From IMG/VR virus record IMGVR_UViG_3300042508_000428: a DNA stretch of 64,000 nucleotides. The stretch is one strand, 5' to 3'. Numbering within the stretch: position 1 is the stretch's first letter; every line of letters starts with the position of its first letter. The notes under the pieces were generated by a model that worked only from the letters and a program-made list of their open reading frames with translations, was not told the DNA's origin and did not search any database. This DNA is from a virus. The translations under genes and the position numbers were made by a program. Shown in pieces: positions 30,134 to 49,791 of this stretch.

Positions 30134-30168
30134 TTGACAAGCGAACGGAGACACGCTATACTGTCTCC
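30134..30168 (+). promoter_or_regulatory. sigma70-type promoter of the tRNA-Ile/ncRNA/tRNA-Ser unit
   Basis: TTGACA-N17-TATACT; GGAGACA/TGTCTCC inverted repeat around the -10. Confidence 0.8.
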
Positions 30169-30174
30169 AACAAC

Positions 30175-30252
30175 GCGCCTGTGGCACGACTGGTTAATGG
30201 CATTCGTCTTATAAGCGATGGTATGTTGGTTCAAATCCAACCGGGCGCACCA
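30175..30252 (+). tRNA. tRNA-Ile(TAT), atypical D and anticodon stems
   Basis: GCGCCTG/CGGGCGC acceptor, TCGT-CTTATAA-GCGA, canonical T arm, ACCA. Confidence 0.78.
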
Positions 30253-30452
30253 GATCTATAATAAGTAATTCTTCTAGTGTAAGAAAGGATAAAATAATTA
30301 ACCAGGTCGTGTAGTACTTAAATAACCCTGTCAAAGGGGACAGATGCTACAACCTTTAGGGGGAAGTGGTCCCGAAGCAAAAAGAACAGGCACATTAGTT
30401 CCGTAGAATACGAAATATGGTCAATTCGTGTGCTGAACTCTTATTATAGATC
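30253..30452 (+). ncRNA. Putative 200-nt structured ncRNA between two tRNAs
   Basis: Perfect 13-bp terminal stem GATCTATAATAAG/CTTATTATAGATC plus nested helices; no ORF. Confidence 0.65.
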
Positions 30453-30457
30453 AATCT

Positions 30458-30548
30458 GGAAACATACCCAAGAGGCTGAAGGGGGCGGTTTGCTAAACCG
30501 CTAGGGGGCGAAAGTCCCGCACAGGTTCAAATCCTGTTGTTTCCGCCA
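30458..30548 (+). tRNA. tRNA-Ser(GCT)
   Basis: GCGGT-TTGCTAA-ACCGC, long variable arm, GCCA. Confidence 0.95.
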
Positions 30549-30559
30549 AGGAGAAGGAA

Positions 30560-31393
30560 ATGAGAAAAATATTTACATCTTTAATATTATCGCTGGGCTT
30601 GGTTGCTTCGAGAGCAGATGCTCTTTCAATCGAAGATAAGATTTATAAGCCGACAGCGGAAGATGTAAAGAAGGCAGACAAGAGTTTTGCTCTGCCGATT
30701 TGGACAAAGGTTGCAATCATCAAAGGTAATGACGAATTAGATCCCCGTCACGCGAATAAAGTGAGAGCAACCTTTCTCGCTCATCATGAGAACAAAGATG
30801 CCAAAAAGCATTATGTTGTCATTTGGAATCATGGAATGAATGGTTTCAGAAACTTCTCCTCCAATACTTATCCATTCCTAAAATGGTTATATGAAAACAA
30901 AAAGAGTTTCACTTGGATTGCTCCAGAACTTCCTTGGAGCAAGAATGTAAACGGAATTGATGGAAGAACATCTTGGAGCAAAAAAGATAGTTTCAAGATA
31001 TTTGTTAAATCAGCGATGGATGCAACTCCACTTATGACAACTGGTATTCAGCCGAATAAAGAACTTGTCTTTGTCGTTGCTGGACATTCTCGTGGAGGCA
31101 AGTCAATTCGTGATGCTGCTAAACATGGTGGACTCTGTGATATTTTACCAAACTGGGTTCTCTGGTCTGATTCTAGTTATAGCAAATGGTTAGATACAGC
31201 TTGGGATGCTTGCTTGGGGAATAGCCCTGTTCGTATGGAAGTATTCTACATGAGGGGAACTGAAACTCAGGCATCAGCAAAAAGAATGCAAGCAAAAGGA
31301 AATCCACTTGTTGAATTTTACCCCTTGACTTCCCCTTGGTATCATGGTAAGATTGGATCATCAGTGATAATGATGTCAGAGGCTTTTAGATGA
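30560..31393 (+). CDS. Secreted alpha/beta-hydrolase-like protein
   Basis: Signal peptide (..SRADA), HG oxyanion motif WNHGM, nucleophile elbow GHSRGG. Confidence 0.65.
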   Translation: MRKIFTSLILSLGLVASRADALSIEDKIYKPTAEDVKKADKSFALPIWTKVAIIKGNDELDPRHANKVRATFLAHHENKDAKKHYVVIWNHGMNGFRNFSSNTYPFLKWLYENKKSFTWIAPELPWSKNVNGIDGRTSWSKKDSFKIFVKSAMDATPLMTTGIQPNKELVFVVAGHSRGGKSIRDAAKHGGLCDILPNWVLWSDSSYSKWLDTAWDACLGNSPVRMEVFYMRGTETQASAKRMQAKGNPLVEFYPLTSPWYHGKIGSSVIMMSEAFR

Positions 31394-31605: not shown

Positions 31606-31746
31606 TTACCTTTTTTTATGGTTTCGGTTTTGCCTTTCTTCTTTTCGCGATCCTAGCGGGTCTTACAAAAGACAAAGAGGCTTTGGCAGATCGTAAACCA
31701 ATTTATCTTTCTAACAAAAAGAAGAATGTAAACAGGAGAGTATAGA

Positions 31747-32703
31747 ATGAATTTAAAGATGATTGATCTATTTGCTGGAACTGGAGCCTTTTCTTTGGCA
31801 TTTGAGTCAACAAAAAAAGTTGACGTTGTTTTTGCAAATGACATGGAAAAAACTTCAAAGCAAATTTATGATCTTAACTTTAATCACAAACTAACTCTTG
31901 CAGATATTGATAAGTTTGATGTTAATCTAATCCCTTCTCATGACATTCTGACAGGTGGCTTTCCGTGCCAACCTTTCAGTATCGCTGGCAAACAACAAGG
32001 ATTTTCTGATAAAAGATCAAACGTTTTCTGGAAAATCCTTGAGATTATCGACAAGCACTCTCCATCTTGTATTGTTCTAGAGAACGTTAAAAATCTAACT
32101 TCTCATGATGGTGGTAATACTTTCTCCGTTATCAAATCAAATCTTGTAAACAGAGGTTATCATCTTCATTACAAAGTGTTGAATACCTCAGAAATTACAC
32201 AAGTTCCACAGAATAGAGAGAGAATTTACATTGTTGGGTTTAAGCAAAAAGAAATGGCTGACAAGTTCAATCTTGATTTTCCATCTCAAACAAACCTGAA
32301 AATTGGTTCTCTATTGGAAACAAGCGTTCTAGGTAAGTATTATTATGGAAACAATGTTAAAATCTATGGGAAACTAGTCTCAGATGTTGTTAAAAAAGAT
32401 GTGATCTATCAATACCGTAGATATTATGTCAGAGAAAACAAGAGTAATGTATGTCCAACATTAACTTATAACATGGGTAGTGGCGGACATAATGTTCCAA
32501 TCTTGCTTGATTCAAACGGGATTAGAAAACTCACTCCAAAAGAGTGTTTTAATTTCCAAGGCTTTCCACAAACATATATTGTTCCATCAAATATTTCTGA
32601 CAGTGGACTTTACAAACTAGCTGGAAATGCTGTATCATACCCAGTAGTAGAACTAATCGCAAACAGAATCGTTGGTCTTTATGAAGAAACAAATGACGCA
32701 TAG
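31747..32703 (+). CDS. C5-cytosine DNA methyltransferase, M.Bsp6I-like (probable GCNGC)
   Basis: DLFAGTG, GFPCQPFS, ENVKNL, QNRERIY, YKLAGNAV; TRD YQYRRYYVRENKSNVCPTLTYNMGSGGHNVP. Confidence 0.95.
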   Translation: MNLKMIDLFAGTGAFSLAFESTKKVDVVFANDMEKTSKQIYDLNFNHKLTLADIDKFDVNLIPSHDILTGGFPCQPFSIAGKQQGFSDKRSNVFWKILEIIDKHSPSCIVLENVKNLTSHDGGNTFSVIKSNLVNRGYHLHYKVLNTSEITQVPQNRERIYIVGFKQKEMADKFNLDFPSQTNLKIGSLLETSVLGKYYYGNNVKIYGKLVSDVVKKDVIYQYRRYYVRENKSNVCPTLTYNMGSGGHNVPILLDSNGIRKLTPKECFNFQGFPQTYIVPSNISDSGLYKLAGNAVSYPVVELIANRIVGLYEETNDA

Positions 32704-33612: not shown

Positions 33613-33779
33613 ATCCAGAAGTAGCCGAAAGATTGGTTAAAATCACTTTGAATGATTGGATTGAATAGGATCCTGACCGTTAGGTAGGTTAAAGAAGGCT
33701 CAACCAGTGAGATTAGTTTTTAACAACATCAATATATGGTCCCTGTAACAAAATAACTCTTAACCGCAATCCTGGATAA
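33613..33779 (+). ncRNA. Putative structured ncRNA immediately after tRNA-Thr
   Basis: Ends pair: ATCCAG/CTGGAT and GATTG-GTTAA/TTAAC-CGCAATC; no ORF. Confidence 0.45.
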
Positions 33780-33781
33780 CC

Positions 33782-33923
33782 AACAAACACTGGAAGTAGA
33801 AAGCTTGCATTAGTTTAAAGTGGTAAATTCCCGGATTGCCGGGCGATGTAGGTTCAAATCCTACATGTTAAAAAGATTCAGGGTATCATGGAACTTGATA
33901 ATTCCGAAATCCCAGTGTTTGTT
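33782..33923 (+). ncRNA. tRNA-like element with a 4-nt anticodon loop inside a 12-bp closing stem
   Basis: AACAAACACTGG/CCAGTGTTTGTT; D-loop GG; CCCGG-ATTG-CCGGG; GTAGG-TTCAAAT-CCTAC. Confidence 0.65.
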
Positions 33924-35764: not shown

Positions 35765-36123
35765 GGGTCTGAAATGGTATCGATCGGGTAGAGTTTTATG
35801 ATTATGCAGGACGATGGGGAGCGAGGCATCGTAAAAACGCTTAAATGTTTAATTGCCAACGACAACGTTGCTTTTGATTACGCCGTAGCGGCTTAAATCA
35901 CGGAGTCTCCAAACACTCTGTAAAATAAGTTTGGATAGGTTGGAATCTTATCGAAAACAAGATTCATCGGCTTTTCTAACTGGTTTTGCCCTGAATAAAT
36001 CAGTATGAAGTCCCTGTAACCCAGGTGTTTTGTCAAGGGTAGGTTGGGTGCTTGACTATTCCTGTGAATGAGTAATCATAAAAACTATGTGAGACGCGGG
36101 TTCGACTCCCGCCAGATCCACCA
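35765..36123 (+). ncRNA. ssrA: tmRNA (one-piece), tag ANDNVAFDYAVAA at 35855-35896
   Basis: GGGTCTG..TGGTATCGA 5' end, GCGGG-TTCGACT-CCCGC T arm, CAGATCC-ACCA 3' end with G3:U, tag ending in AA-stop. Confidence 0.95.
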
Positions 36124-43144: not shown

Positions 43145-43318
43145 AACTTAATAAAGATTAATAGTTCTATTTATTTGATTGTTGAATACTTTATTACTTA
43201 ATAATCATTCTCGATAAAGTAGGCATTTAACTTCCTCAGCATATTCCGCTGAAAGCATATGTGACACTGAAAAAAAAGATCTTTATGCCTCACTTTGTAT
43301 ATGAGGGACTGAAAGCCA

Positions 43319-43976
43319 AACGGCAGACTGAGAGGTCTTGACGCCAGCAAACAGATCGGGTAAGATACCTAAGTCAAAGCGAGAGACCTGCGCGGTTTCT
43401 CGAAACGGCAAACGGCAAACCGGGGAACGCGAGACTGCGAGGTCTTGACAACCGTTCCAAGTTGTGGTAAGCTACTAAGGTCAACGCGGGAAACGGGCTT
43501 CGCGCTCTGAAACCGCAAACGCTCCTTGAAAACCGAGTAGATTCGCAAACGTGATACTGCGAGGGCTTGACAACCGAATCTGGTTGTGGTAGACTACTAA
43601 ACGCGGAATGGTTCCGCAAGGAGGCGAAATGTCGATTACGAATGACGCACTGAAGGGTATTGTTCTTGGTCTGACGATTGCCAAATTGGTTATTCTGCTG
43701 AACGGCTAACTGAACCGAAACGTGAGACCGCGAGGTATTGACAGCGGTTCCGAGTTGTGGTAAGATCCTGACTGTGACGGCGACCTGAGCGGTTGCCGAG
43801 ATTAAGAAACGCGGTACTGAGAAACGCGATACTGCGAGGGCTTGACAACGGTTCGAAGTTGTGGTAAACTCCTGAATGTGAGCGAGCCTGAGCGGTTCGC
43901 GAAACGACGGAGAGAAGCAGAAATCGGAAACGTGATACTGCAAGCTCTTGACAAGCGAATCTACTTGGTGTACAAT
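43319..43976 (+). promoter_or_regulatory. Array of six tandem sigma70 promoters, each with a conserved 19-nt upstream element
   Basis: TTGAC(A/G) at 43338, 43445, 43567, 43738, 43842, 43948, all N17 to TAAGAT/TAAGCT/TAGACT/TAAGAT/TAAACT/TACAAT. Confidence 0.9.
43629..43709 (+). CDS. 26-aa hydrophobic peptide MSITNDALKGIVLGLTIAKLVILLNG
   Basis: AGGAGG RBS 4-5 nt upstream, directly downstream of promoter P3. Confidence 0.6.
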   Translation: MSITNDALKGIVLGLTIAKLVILLNG

Positions 43977-43988
43977 CCCTAAGTCGGC

Positions 43989-44038
43989 GGTGAGCTTCGC
44001 GTTCACCCACTCCGCATCGGATCTTTGATAACTGAATA
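43989..44038 (+). promoter_or_regulatory. boxB-like hairpin plus rrn-type boxA-like antitermination element
   Basis: GGTGA-GCTTCGCGT-TCACC then GATCTTTGATAACTGAATA. Confidence 0.65.
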
Positions 44039-44166
44039 ACGATTGCGAGCACAGAGTTGCTCTGCAAAGATGATGGACTGCCGTGGTCTGCGAAGTCACG
44101 AGACCTTCCACATCGCAATCAAGACGACACGCAATAAGTGCGTGACGTAGAGTGAGTACGATTAAT

Positions 44167-45104: not shown

Positions 45105-45386
45105 GGTGGCTTGCGATAGACCCCAAACAGAATGGGGTTCAATCAACGGTTTCCCGCTGTAGGGAAATGCAGTTGGACGCAAGCCACCATTCGCGGTGTG
45201 GTTCCACCGATTGGAAGTGAACCCATCCCGCTGTGGTTGAACAGCACAGCAGGCGACGGTTACGCCGATTGGAAGCTAACCCATCCAACCGTGGATGACA
45301 AGCACGGCTACTTGCACAATCGTCTAAATGGAAAGTGCGCGTGAATATACGCGTGATGCGGGTTCGACTCCCGCTTGTGCAAGCCA
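45105..45386 (+). ncRNA. Putative multi-domain ncRNA with two CGATTGGAA-loop hairpins and a 3' tRNA-like domain
   Basis: 11-bp stem 45105-15/45178-88; repeated hairpins; T arm GCGGG-TTCGACT-CCCGC; 6-nt anticodon loop. Confidence 0.7.
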
Positions 45387-48992: not shown

Positions 48993-49791
48993 ATGGTGTT
49001 AGATAGATTGCACTATCACATACATTCACACATGGTATACGAATAGGTAATCAGTAGATAGCAGGGGAGATAGAGAAGCCTAAACGATGCTGTTAAATAA
49101 TCGTGGTAGGAGAGAATAGATAATGGGCAGGAAATGGATGACCAGTGAACCAGCCAAATACACTATCCCGACCTGTTGACAACCATCGTTAAATGCGTTA
49201 TTATGCATGTGGTACTGCTCCCCTGCTGGATTACATAGCAACACTCCTCTACCACGGGTAGGTGAACAGCATAGGCGGAGGCACCCAAACAGTGGGTATG
49301 GACTAGACCCCTGGATCTGTATTATCAAGCATGACCCCTCCGCCATAGGGTATCACACTTCATCTATTCAGTCAAGGGTAGATTATGGGTGGACAACGAT
49401 TACGTTTCTTTCTAACACCCAGCGAAAGTTGAATACCTCAGGGCACAACGCATTATATAACAAACGGTTAAGGTTGTCAACCAAACGTGTGATAAGGTTC
49501 TATCAGCGCCTAGCGAAATGTTAATCAACCCTGTTTAAACATTGCAGACCAGCATAAGGAATATTCATTTCGATTAAATGATTAATGAATAAACGTTTAA
49601 CAGCAAAGCATTGCAGCAAAGTCAAACATCGTTCAGGGCACAAACAATGCCCCCTCCCCCTCCCCCTTCTAAACCGAATGGAAACCGGAATTTATGTTTC
49701 AAGGCGCAGTATCGCGAATAAACGGTTTGCTTGACCCTCTTTCAACGCGCCTATAATTTTCCCAGATTTGAACTTTTTTGTCAAGTCTCAC

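Follow-up and report, generated by a model that had tools for sequence, protein, structure and literature searches.

Stable RNAs other than tRNAs have been known from phage tRNA operons since bacteriophage T4. In the T4 cluster, the tRNA-Arg gene is followed after 1 nt by rnaD (species 2, 119 nt), which is followed after a further 6 nt by rnaC (species 1, 139 nt). The function of these two RNAs is still unknown (PMC9697503). GOLLD and ROOL are phage-borne, elaborately folded RNAs that are often located near tRNA genes and for which neither the function nor a protein partner is known (PMC12286853). RNase P separates polycistronic tRNA precursors and also accepts helices that are not part of a tRNA (PMC11143913). 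Its non-tRNA substrates include pre-4.5S RNA, pre-tmRNA, and the C4 RNA precursor of phages P1 and P7, which offer a helix resembling an acceptor/T-stem (PMC11143913). RNase E cuts E. coli proline tRNAs in one step exactly at the CCA (PMC5291269).

The window analyzed here, a stretch of 64,000 nt, is part of the 77-kb IMG/VR virus record IMGVR_UViG_3300042508_000428, which is estimated to be ~37% complete. The record contains phage genes for a DnaE-type polymerase, a GroEL-like chaperonin, a MoxR ATPase with its VWA partner, 16 tRNAs, and a transfer-messenger RNA (tmRNA). DNA of this stretch is present in 17 lake-water metagenome runs, and the source is an uncultured large phage of the lake-water type. 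Analysis of the tRNA region revealed a 200-nt structured noncoding RNA, designated element X, located between the genes for tRNA-Ile(UAU) and tRNA-Ser(GCU). According to the sequence, the leader, tRNA-Ile(UAU), X, tRNA-Ser(GCU), and ORF277 form a predicted operon that is read as one precursor from a consensus host-type promoter. The features of the locus are as follows.

30134..30162, + strand: sigma-70-type promoter TTGACA-N17-TATACT (11/12 in the consensus scan), 12 nt upstream of tRNA-Ile
Up to 30174, + strand: leader, with the palindrome GGAGACA-N8-TGTCTCC (30147-30168) overlapping the -10 box
30175..30252, + strand: tRNA-Ile(UAU), CCA encoded at 30250-30252 (ARAGORN; Rfam tRNA model, 46.5 bits)
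30253..30452, + strand: element X, structured noncoding RNA, 200 nt (fold, homologues, covariance model R1)
30453-30457, + strand: trailer AAUCU, 5 nt, between X and tRNA-Ser
30458..30548, + strand: tRNA-Ser(GCU), CCA encoded (ARAGORN and Rfam)
30560..31393, + strand: ORF277, 277 aa, signal-peptide-like N-terminus and invariant GHSRGG motif
35765-36123: one-piece, phage-encoded tmRNA (Rfam, 111 bits), tag ANDNVAFDYAVAA, 88% identical in a related phage

The ARAGORN and Rfam coordinates agree with the boundaries proposed in an earlier note on this DNA, in which X starts right after the CCA of tRNA-Ile and ends 5 nt before tRNA-Ser. The statement of that note that X contains no ORF also holds, since no frame of at least 25 aa was detected on the + strand of X and only minus-strand frames of 41 aa and 25 aa overlap it.

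The promoter of the X operon is 98% identical in the related phage. Scanning of the window for TTGACA-N17-TAnACT with at most one mismatch revealed 14 sites on the + strand (17791-47783), compared to 0.46 expected by chance, and the X-operon promoter is a perfect member of this family. This excess indicates a real phage class of strong host-type promoters. The 14 sites cover the tRNA-rich middle of the window, and one more is located on the minus strand (49452-49480). The palindrome at 30147-30168, which is fully kept in the related phage, could serve as an operator or as a leader hairpin. No terminator-like site was found between X and tRNA-Ser. The ribosome-binding site of ORF277 directly follows the CCA of tRNA-Ser, with neither a promoter of its own nor a terminator in between; therefore, ORF277 is probably cotranscribed. 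No Pfam or PHROG family was assigned to ORF277, and its N-terminus together with the GHSRGG motif suggests a secreted alpha/beta-hydrolase-like enzyme. Relatives of ORF277 are encoded in 149 metagenome stretches from lakes and oceans.

In a river metatranscriptome, the sole contig on a 901-nt stretch was 172 nt long and lay wholly inside X. The strand, ends, and level of this contig are not readable and such libraries can hold DNA, so that it provides a weak hint of X expression, which fits a stable RNA. The variant from the river RNA library carries a 5-nt GTAGA duplication after position 30402, in the loop of the variable hairpin described below. Runs X19 and X20, which are labeled RNA-Seq and are probably DNA, cover only tRNA-like parts from other organisms. 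The lack of coverage on the flanking ORFs in run X18 carries no evidential weight.

Other features of the region were recorded in the course of the analysis. A second tRNA-flanked noncoding stretch is located at 33613-33872. Its 191 nt after tRNA-Thr are 83% identical in the related phage, with a fold that is not significant (z = -0.33), and it ends with a tRNA look-alike with a shortened anticodon loop (Rfam tRNA model, 34.9 bits; ARAGORN silent). At 45312-45386, ARAGORN predicted a tRNA with a four-base anticodon (aata), to which it assigned no identity. The gene for a C5 cytosine DNA methyltransferase (31747-32703) and its upstream spacer (together 31606-32703) form an insertion relative to the related phage contig L003. 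A 1-kb stretch of raised G+C content (43145-44166) contains no + strand ORF of at least 50 aa, carries promoter-family sites at 43567 and 43842, is overlapped by a 245-aa minus-strand frame, and has tRNA-Arg just downstream. The tmRNA tag in relatives is ANDNVAFDYAVAA, as in the window, or ANDNVEFDYALAA.

Folding of X yielded a minimum free energy of -53.7 kcal/mol (z = -3.66), which was better than 200 of 200 shuffled sequences. The minus strand folds about as well in silico (z = -3.61). When the whole 398-nt precursor is folded, X appears as a closed domain of its own, flanked by the two cloverleaves. The first 13 nt (30253-30265) are perfectly complementary to 30440-30452, which bears out the terminal stem described earlier. 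The first pair of X is G1-C200, and position -1 of tRNA-Ser is U. The parts of X, as predicted and compared with the homologues described below, are the following.

30253..30265, + strand: P1, 5' strand of the 13-bp closing helix, pairs with 30440-30452
30266..30303, + strand: 5' domain, less conserved (6 changes, no clear compensation), with invariant UAGUGUAA
30304-30318 pairing with 30342-30355, + strand: P3 arm, contains TGTAGTA/TGCTACA
30326-30338, + strand: invariant apical hairpin CCCU/AGGG of the P3 arm (predicted fold)
30350..30392, + strand: 43-nt block identical in both lineages (invariant alignment columns 98-140)
30361-30373, + strand: small hairpin P4 within the 43-nt block (predicted fold)
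30374-30388, + strand: A-rich stretch, predicted to be single-stranded, with five consecutive A-R-N triplets, AGCAAAAAGAACAGG
30389..30434, + strand: P5, variable hairpin, with the stem base kept and the top replaced and 15 nt shorter in the other lineage
30440..30452, + strand: P1, 3' strand (perfect complementarity to 30253-30265; comparison)

In addition, the UUC of the 5' domain (30269-30271) may pair with GAA at 30435-30437 in the modeled fold, and AAAGG/CCUUU could form a pseudoknot.

Searching for X homologues by BLAST with X and its surroundings against 50,697 GenBank phage records revealed nothing except a tRNA. Among 185,579 species genomes scanned with 20-mers, two matches were obtained, both in Victivallales metagenome-assembled genomes; they are only 21 nt long and close to chance. 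In IMG/VR, three 20-mers of the core and the ORF277 protein all led to one contig, IMGVR_UViG_3300027973_000031. This contig contains the same promoter, tRNA-Ile(UAU), a 191-nt X, and tRNA-Ser(GCU), with a tmRNA ~4.4 kb downstream. An alignment of 21 ORF277 sequences, made up of the copy in the window and 20 of 31 homologues, was used to scan IMG/VR and JGI metagenomes. The two-sequence covariance model R1 was then run on 14 IMG/VR loci, 79 metagenome loci, and five whole related virus records, and it recovered X only at the window locus and in L021, L024/L034, and L023. The L021 copy is identical to the X of the window, L024/L034 represent the IMG/VR type, and L023 is one base off L024. The position of X is the same in IMGVR_UViG_3300027973_000031 and two metagenome contigs. 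The spacing between X and the upstream CCA is zero in all copies, and that between X and tRNA-Ser is 5 to 6 nt. Thus, X is known from two deep lineages with 3 distinct sequences, and it is single-copy in the 77-kb record. No X was found next to ORF277 relatives at ~50% identity, and BLAST of X on the five related records gave chance-level short matches only. A gap in relative L007 that seemed analogous to the X site holds an 87-aa ORF. Beyond the loci covered by this search, more X variants are probably carried by the ENA and Logan contigs that encode the ORF277 relatives P0001 to P0009 (60 to 96% identical).

Comparison of the two lineages revealed that X is better conserved than its neighbors. 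Identity amounts to 92% in the 5' part and core of X and to 95% in its 3' strand, compared to 67% for tRNA-Ile, 65% for tRNA-Ser, and 66% for the ORF277 DNA; across the flanking tRNAs and ORFs, ~35% of the positions differ. The variable hairpin is 37% identical. In a 9.6-kb conservation profile, X and the tmRNA are among the clearest peaks. Because the locus clearly recombines, part of this identity could stem from a recent exchange of X between the lineages and not from constraint.

The RNAalifold consensus contains 52 pairs, all of which are standard in the 3 distinct sequences, while in control structures slid by 1 to 3 columns only 35 to 46% of the cells pair. Four pairs changed on both sides: pair 3 of P1, one pair in the TGTAGTA/TGCTACA helix, and two at the base of the 3' hairpin. 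Pair 3 of P1 is U-A in the window, U.G in L023, and C-G in L024. In P3, one pair changed from U-A to C-G on both sides and one from U.G to C-G. Four further pairs changed on one side through G.U, and the stem base of P5 shows two double and three one-sided changes. In column shuffles, 14 of 500 reached the observed values. Since only two deep lineages (3 distinct sequences) were found, the covariation rests on the four double changes, and it is informative for varying pairs only; P1a, the 5' hairpin, CCCU/AGGG (P3a), and GGGA/UCCC (P4) never vary. The X of the second lineage, folded alone, adopts the same architecture (z = -4.35). Each X sequence contains 2 to 4 G.U pairs, which would be A.C mismatches on the opposite strand. 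Such pairs fit the + strand only, which indicates that the folded molecule is the + strand RNA and neither its complement nor a DNA cruciform. As judged by these comparisons, X is a real RNA gene that evolves independently, and it belongs to a small clade of large, uncultured phages from fresh water.

The same comparison bears on five internal helices that the earlier note had listed, at most two of which survive. The TGTAGTA/TGCTACA helix stands, and the base of the 3' hairpin is supported as well. The AATTAACCA/TGGTCAATT helix is interrupted by an A.C mismatch, and its 3' strand is part of the hairpin that is replaced in the homologue. The CTGTC/GACAG helix is broken in the homologue, which reads GAAAG, and the GAAC/GTTC and CGTA/TACG helices lie in, or pair into, the variable hairpin. 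The broader proposal of a discrete multibranched noncoding RNA bounded by two tRNAs is backed by the compensatory changes in the second phage lineage. Homologues from related phages and their covariation had been suggested as a check, and the four double-changed pairs in 3 sequences from two lineages are the outcome.

An Rfam search, the other check suggested at the outset, matched no known family. With Rfam 15, at E ≤ 10 as well as at the gathering thresholds, X alone and its homologue gave no match, and in the window only tRNAs and the tmRNA were found; detection of the phage tmRNA (111 bits) and of the tRNAs served as a positive control. The absence of RNase P, SRP, and tmRNA signatures from X was thus confirmed at E ≤ 10, and group I introns and known self-cleaving ribozymes gave no Rfam match at this threshold either. 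Kinship with GOLLD or ROOL, which had been considered, was not borne out: neither Rfam model matches, and X comprises 200 nt compared to more than 500 nt. Bacterial Y RNA (YrlA) gave no match, and no TROVE or RtcB gene was found in the 77-kb record; since the record is only ~37% complete, the missing Ro/TROVE protein is weak evidence. A retron msr-msd was rejected because the record contains no RVT_1 match and the neighboring ORFs lack a reverse transcriptase domain. No RNA-related domain was found in the neighboring small ORFs. A scan of the window for antisense targets of at least 11 nt for the conserved X segments gave 3 matches, about as many as expected by chance. Model R1, run with filters off on T4 positions 68000 to 76000, gave noise only, which argues against homology to rnaC and rnaD.

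The likeness to the T4 RNAs is therefore one of kind and not of family: in both cases, phage genes for non-tRNA RNAs abut tRNA genes in one operon, and rnaC and rnaD would be matured together with the tRNAs, as is proposed for X. However, X exceeds both T4 RNAs in length, has a 13-bp closing helix, and is flanked by a tRNA on either side, whereas the T4 pair is positioned at the end of its cluster, and rnaC has a tRNA-like T-arm (GGUUCGAAUCC) that X lacks. GOLLD and ROOL resemble X as ornate phage-borne RNAs beside tRNA islands, but they exceed 500 to 800 nt, compared to the 200 nt of X, and nothing suggests cage-forming multimers for X.

Analysis of related contigs revealed that the site of X varies. 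In L046, whose tRNA-Ile and tRNA-Ser are closer to those of the window than are those of the other X-bearing lineage, the place of X (593-1121) is occupied by an ORF for an HNH-type endonuclease (661-1116) and a second tRNA-Ile(UAU), which is only 2 nt from tRNA-Ser; no X is present. L025 also lacks X, and ORF277 follows directly after tRNA-Ile. In L021 and L023, and thus before both types of X, the canonical tRNA-Ile has been swapped for an odd, longer tRNA look-alike, with the promoter and X unchanged and the breakpoint exactly at CCA|X. The look-alike (L023, 2616-2705; L021, 76-162) is ~87 nt long and has a normal acceptor stem, a T-arm, CCA, and a UAU anticodon-type loop, with the middle rearranged or extended; it was missed by ARAGORN and gave a weak tRNA-Sec-like match of 20.6 bits. 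X therefore behaves as a separate, dispensable module in a recombining region. The existence of close relatives without X suggests that it is an accessory factor and does not belong to the core machinery. Recombining regions are a frequent location of phage accessory genes for host interaction.

The best explanation overall, which we consider probable, is that X is a real RNA gene that would be released by tRNA-processing enzymes and may act in trans as an accessory RNA. X folds as a self-contained domain with the 13-bp closing helix, a multihelix junction, the invariant 43-nt core, and the variable hairpin, and the tRNA-maturation nucleases of the host would cut it out. With a tRNA at each of its exact boundaries, X would be released as the tRNAs mature. 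One endonucleolytic cut, at CCA|G, would generate both the mature 3' end of tRNA-Ile and the 5' end of X. This cut could be made by RNase P, with the closing helix read as a mimic of an acceptor/T-stem, or by RNase E. RNase P cleavage at the 5' end of tRNA-Ser would leave X with a 3' tail of 5 to 6 nt, which would then be trimmed back to the helix. The blunt closed helix would shield X from exonucleases, so that a stable RNA would accumulate. The release route proposed here is the same as that of the non-tRNA substrates of RNase P, although the helix of X is not followed by a 3' RCCA; the tail reads AAUCU in the window and UAUUUA in the other lineage. Once free, X may act in trans, with its invariant core serving to bind a protein of the host or the phage, either as a platform or as a decoy. 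We favor a scaffold or decoy that acts in trans because the core, with a small hairpin followed by the A-R-N single strand, looks like a protein-binding site in the predicted fold, and we propose this protein-binding function with low confidence. No partner protein, target, or known motif for X was found in the neighboring ORFs or in the antisense scan of the window.

A more specific version of this proposal, which we regard as unlikely, would make X a new functional class, i.e., an abundant early RNA that tRNA-processing enzymes produce at no extra cost and whose invariant core captures a host RNA-binding protein or an RNA-targeting defense nuclease. If this were true, X would be an RNA-only factor for host takeover or counterdefense in a recombination hot spot of a tRNA operon, and there would be a natural example of a single endonucleolytic cut, at CCA|G, that both completes the 3' end of a tRNA and starts another RNA.

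The variable occupancy of the site would also be expected if X were an intervening-sequence-like or selfish insert, the remnant of a mobile cassette, that is constrained solely to fold back so that the flanking tRNAs are processed. The site is a hot spot that holds an HNH ORF and a second tRNA-Ile in L046, no X is present in L025, the tRNA slot upstream of X swaps alleles, and the closing helix brings the two tRNAs back together. The T4 tRNA cluster likewise contains a homing endonuclease, SegB, comparable to the HNH ORF at the X site of L046. The intervening sequences of 23S rRNA are inserts of a stable-RNA operon with a long terminal helix and are excised without religation; they are cut by RNase III, discarded, and poorly conserved. 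X also closes on itself with a long terminal helix, but its core is invariant, and its location is intergenic and not within a gene. A constraint on folding only leaves an identical, largely predicted-unpaired block of 43 nt unexplained, and it also fails to account for the stronger conservation of X relative to the adjacent functional tRNAs. Moreover, only one copy of X is present in the 77-kb record, no target-site duplication was found, and other IMG/VR loci that share its terminal 10-mers have unrelated interiors. An origin of this type thus appears doubtful to us. We consider it quite improbable that X acts in cis, either on the processing order or efficiency of tRNA-Ile(UAU) and tRNA-Ser or on the amount or stability of the ORF277 message. 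The constant spacing, zero to the CCA of tRNA-Ile in all copies and 5 to 6 nt to tRNA-Ser, and the position of ORF277 downstream without its own promoter or an intervening terminator would fit such a role. However, in relatives the same tRNAs and ORF277 occur although X is absent, exchange of the preceding tRNA leaves X unaltered, and a 200-nt multihelix RNA with an invariant core far exceeds the needs of a processing signal.

A DNA-level element, such as a miniature inverted-repeat transposable element (MITE), a recombination or packaging site, or an origin, would account for the perfect 13-bp terminal inverted repeats and for the nearly equal folding of both strands (z = -3.66 and -3.61). 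Against this, the changes in the arms are compensated via a U.G intermediate and G.U pairs occur only in the + strand reading, which fits RNA and neither a cruciform nor DNA ends bound by a protein, and X lies inside a transcribed tRNA operon. X is also single-copy and lacks a target-site duplication at its ends, and no family with these ends was found: ten IMG/VR loci with the same terminal 10-mers and spacing are unrelated inside, which indicates that X does not belong to a MITE family. We therefore judge a DNA-level role to be very unlikely. The 6S-like decoy of host RNA polymerase suggested in the earlier note is equally hard to credit. The length of ~200 nt, the closing helix formed by the ends, and the early host-type promoter would suit such a decoy, but at E ≤ 10 neither X nor its homologue is matched by 6S RNA (RF00013) or related models. 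Furthermore, 6S RNA forms an extended rod that is interrupted by a large central bubble and ends in a terminal loop, whereas the consensus and both single folds of X form a junction with 4 to 5 arms. Release of X from the tRNA precursor as a trans-acting accessory RNA remains the explanation that we prefer.

X represents a new RNA family with a narrow distribution; its kind, stable RNAs encoded in phage tRNA operons, is known. The earlier suggestion of a new phage RNA class therefore holds for the sequence family and not for the kind, which has T4 as a precedent. The immediate reach of the finding is modest because X is known from only two lineages of uncultured phages. Unexplained structured RNAs recur in or beside phage tRNA clusters, as T4 rnaC/rnaD, GOLLD, and ROOL illustrate, and to our knowledge none of these has a known function. 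X is a tractable model because it is compact and has clean boundaries, a clear promoter, a small invariant core, and relatives that represent natural "knockouts." As such, it may help to reveal the roles of RNAs of this kind and the use of tRNA-processing enzymes for making other RNAs. X adds a family to the catalogues of known RNAs and pinpoints a hot spot for accessory elements within the tRNA operon of lake phages that are abundant.
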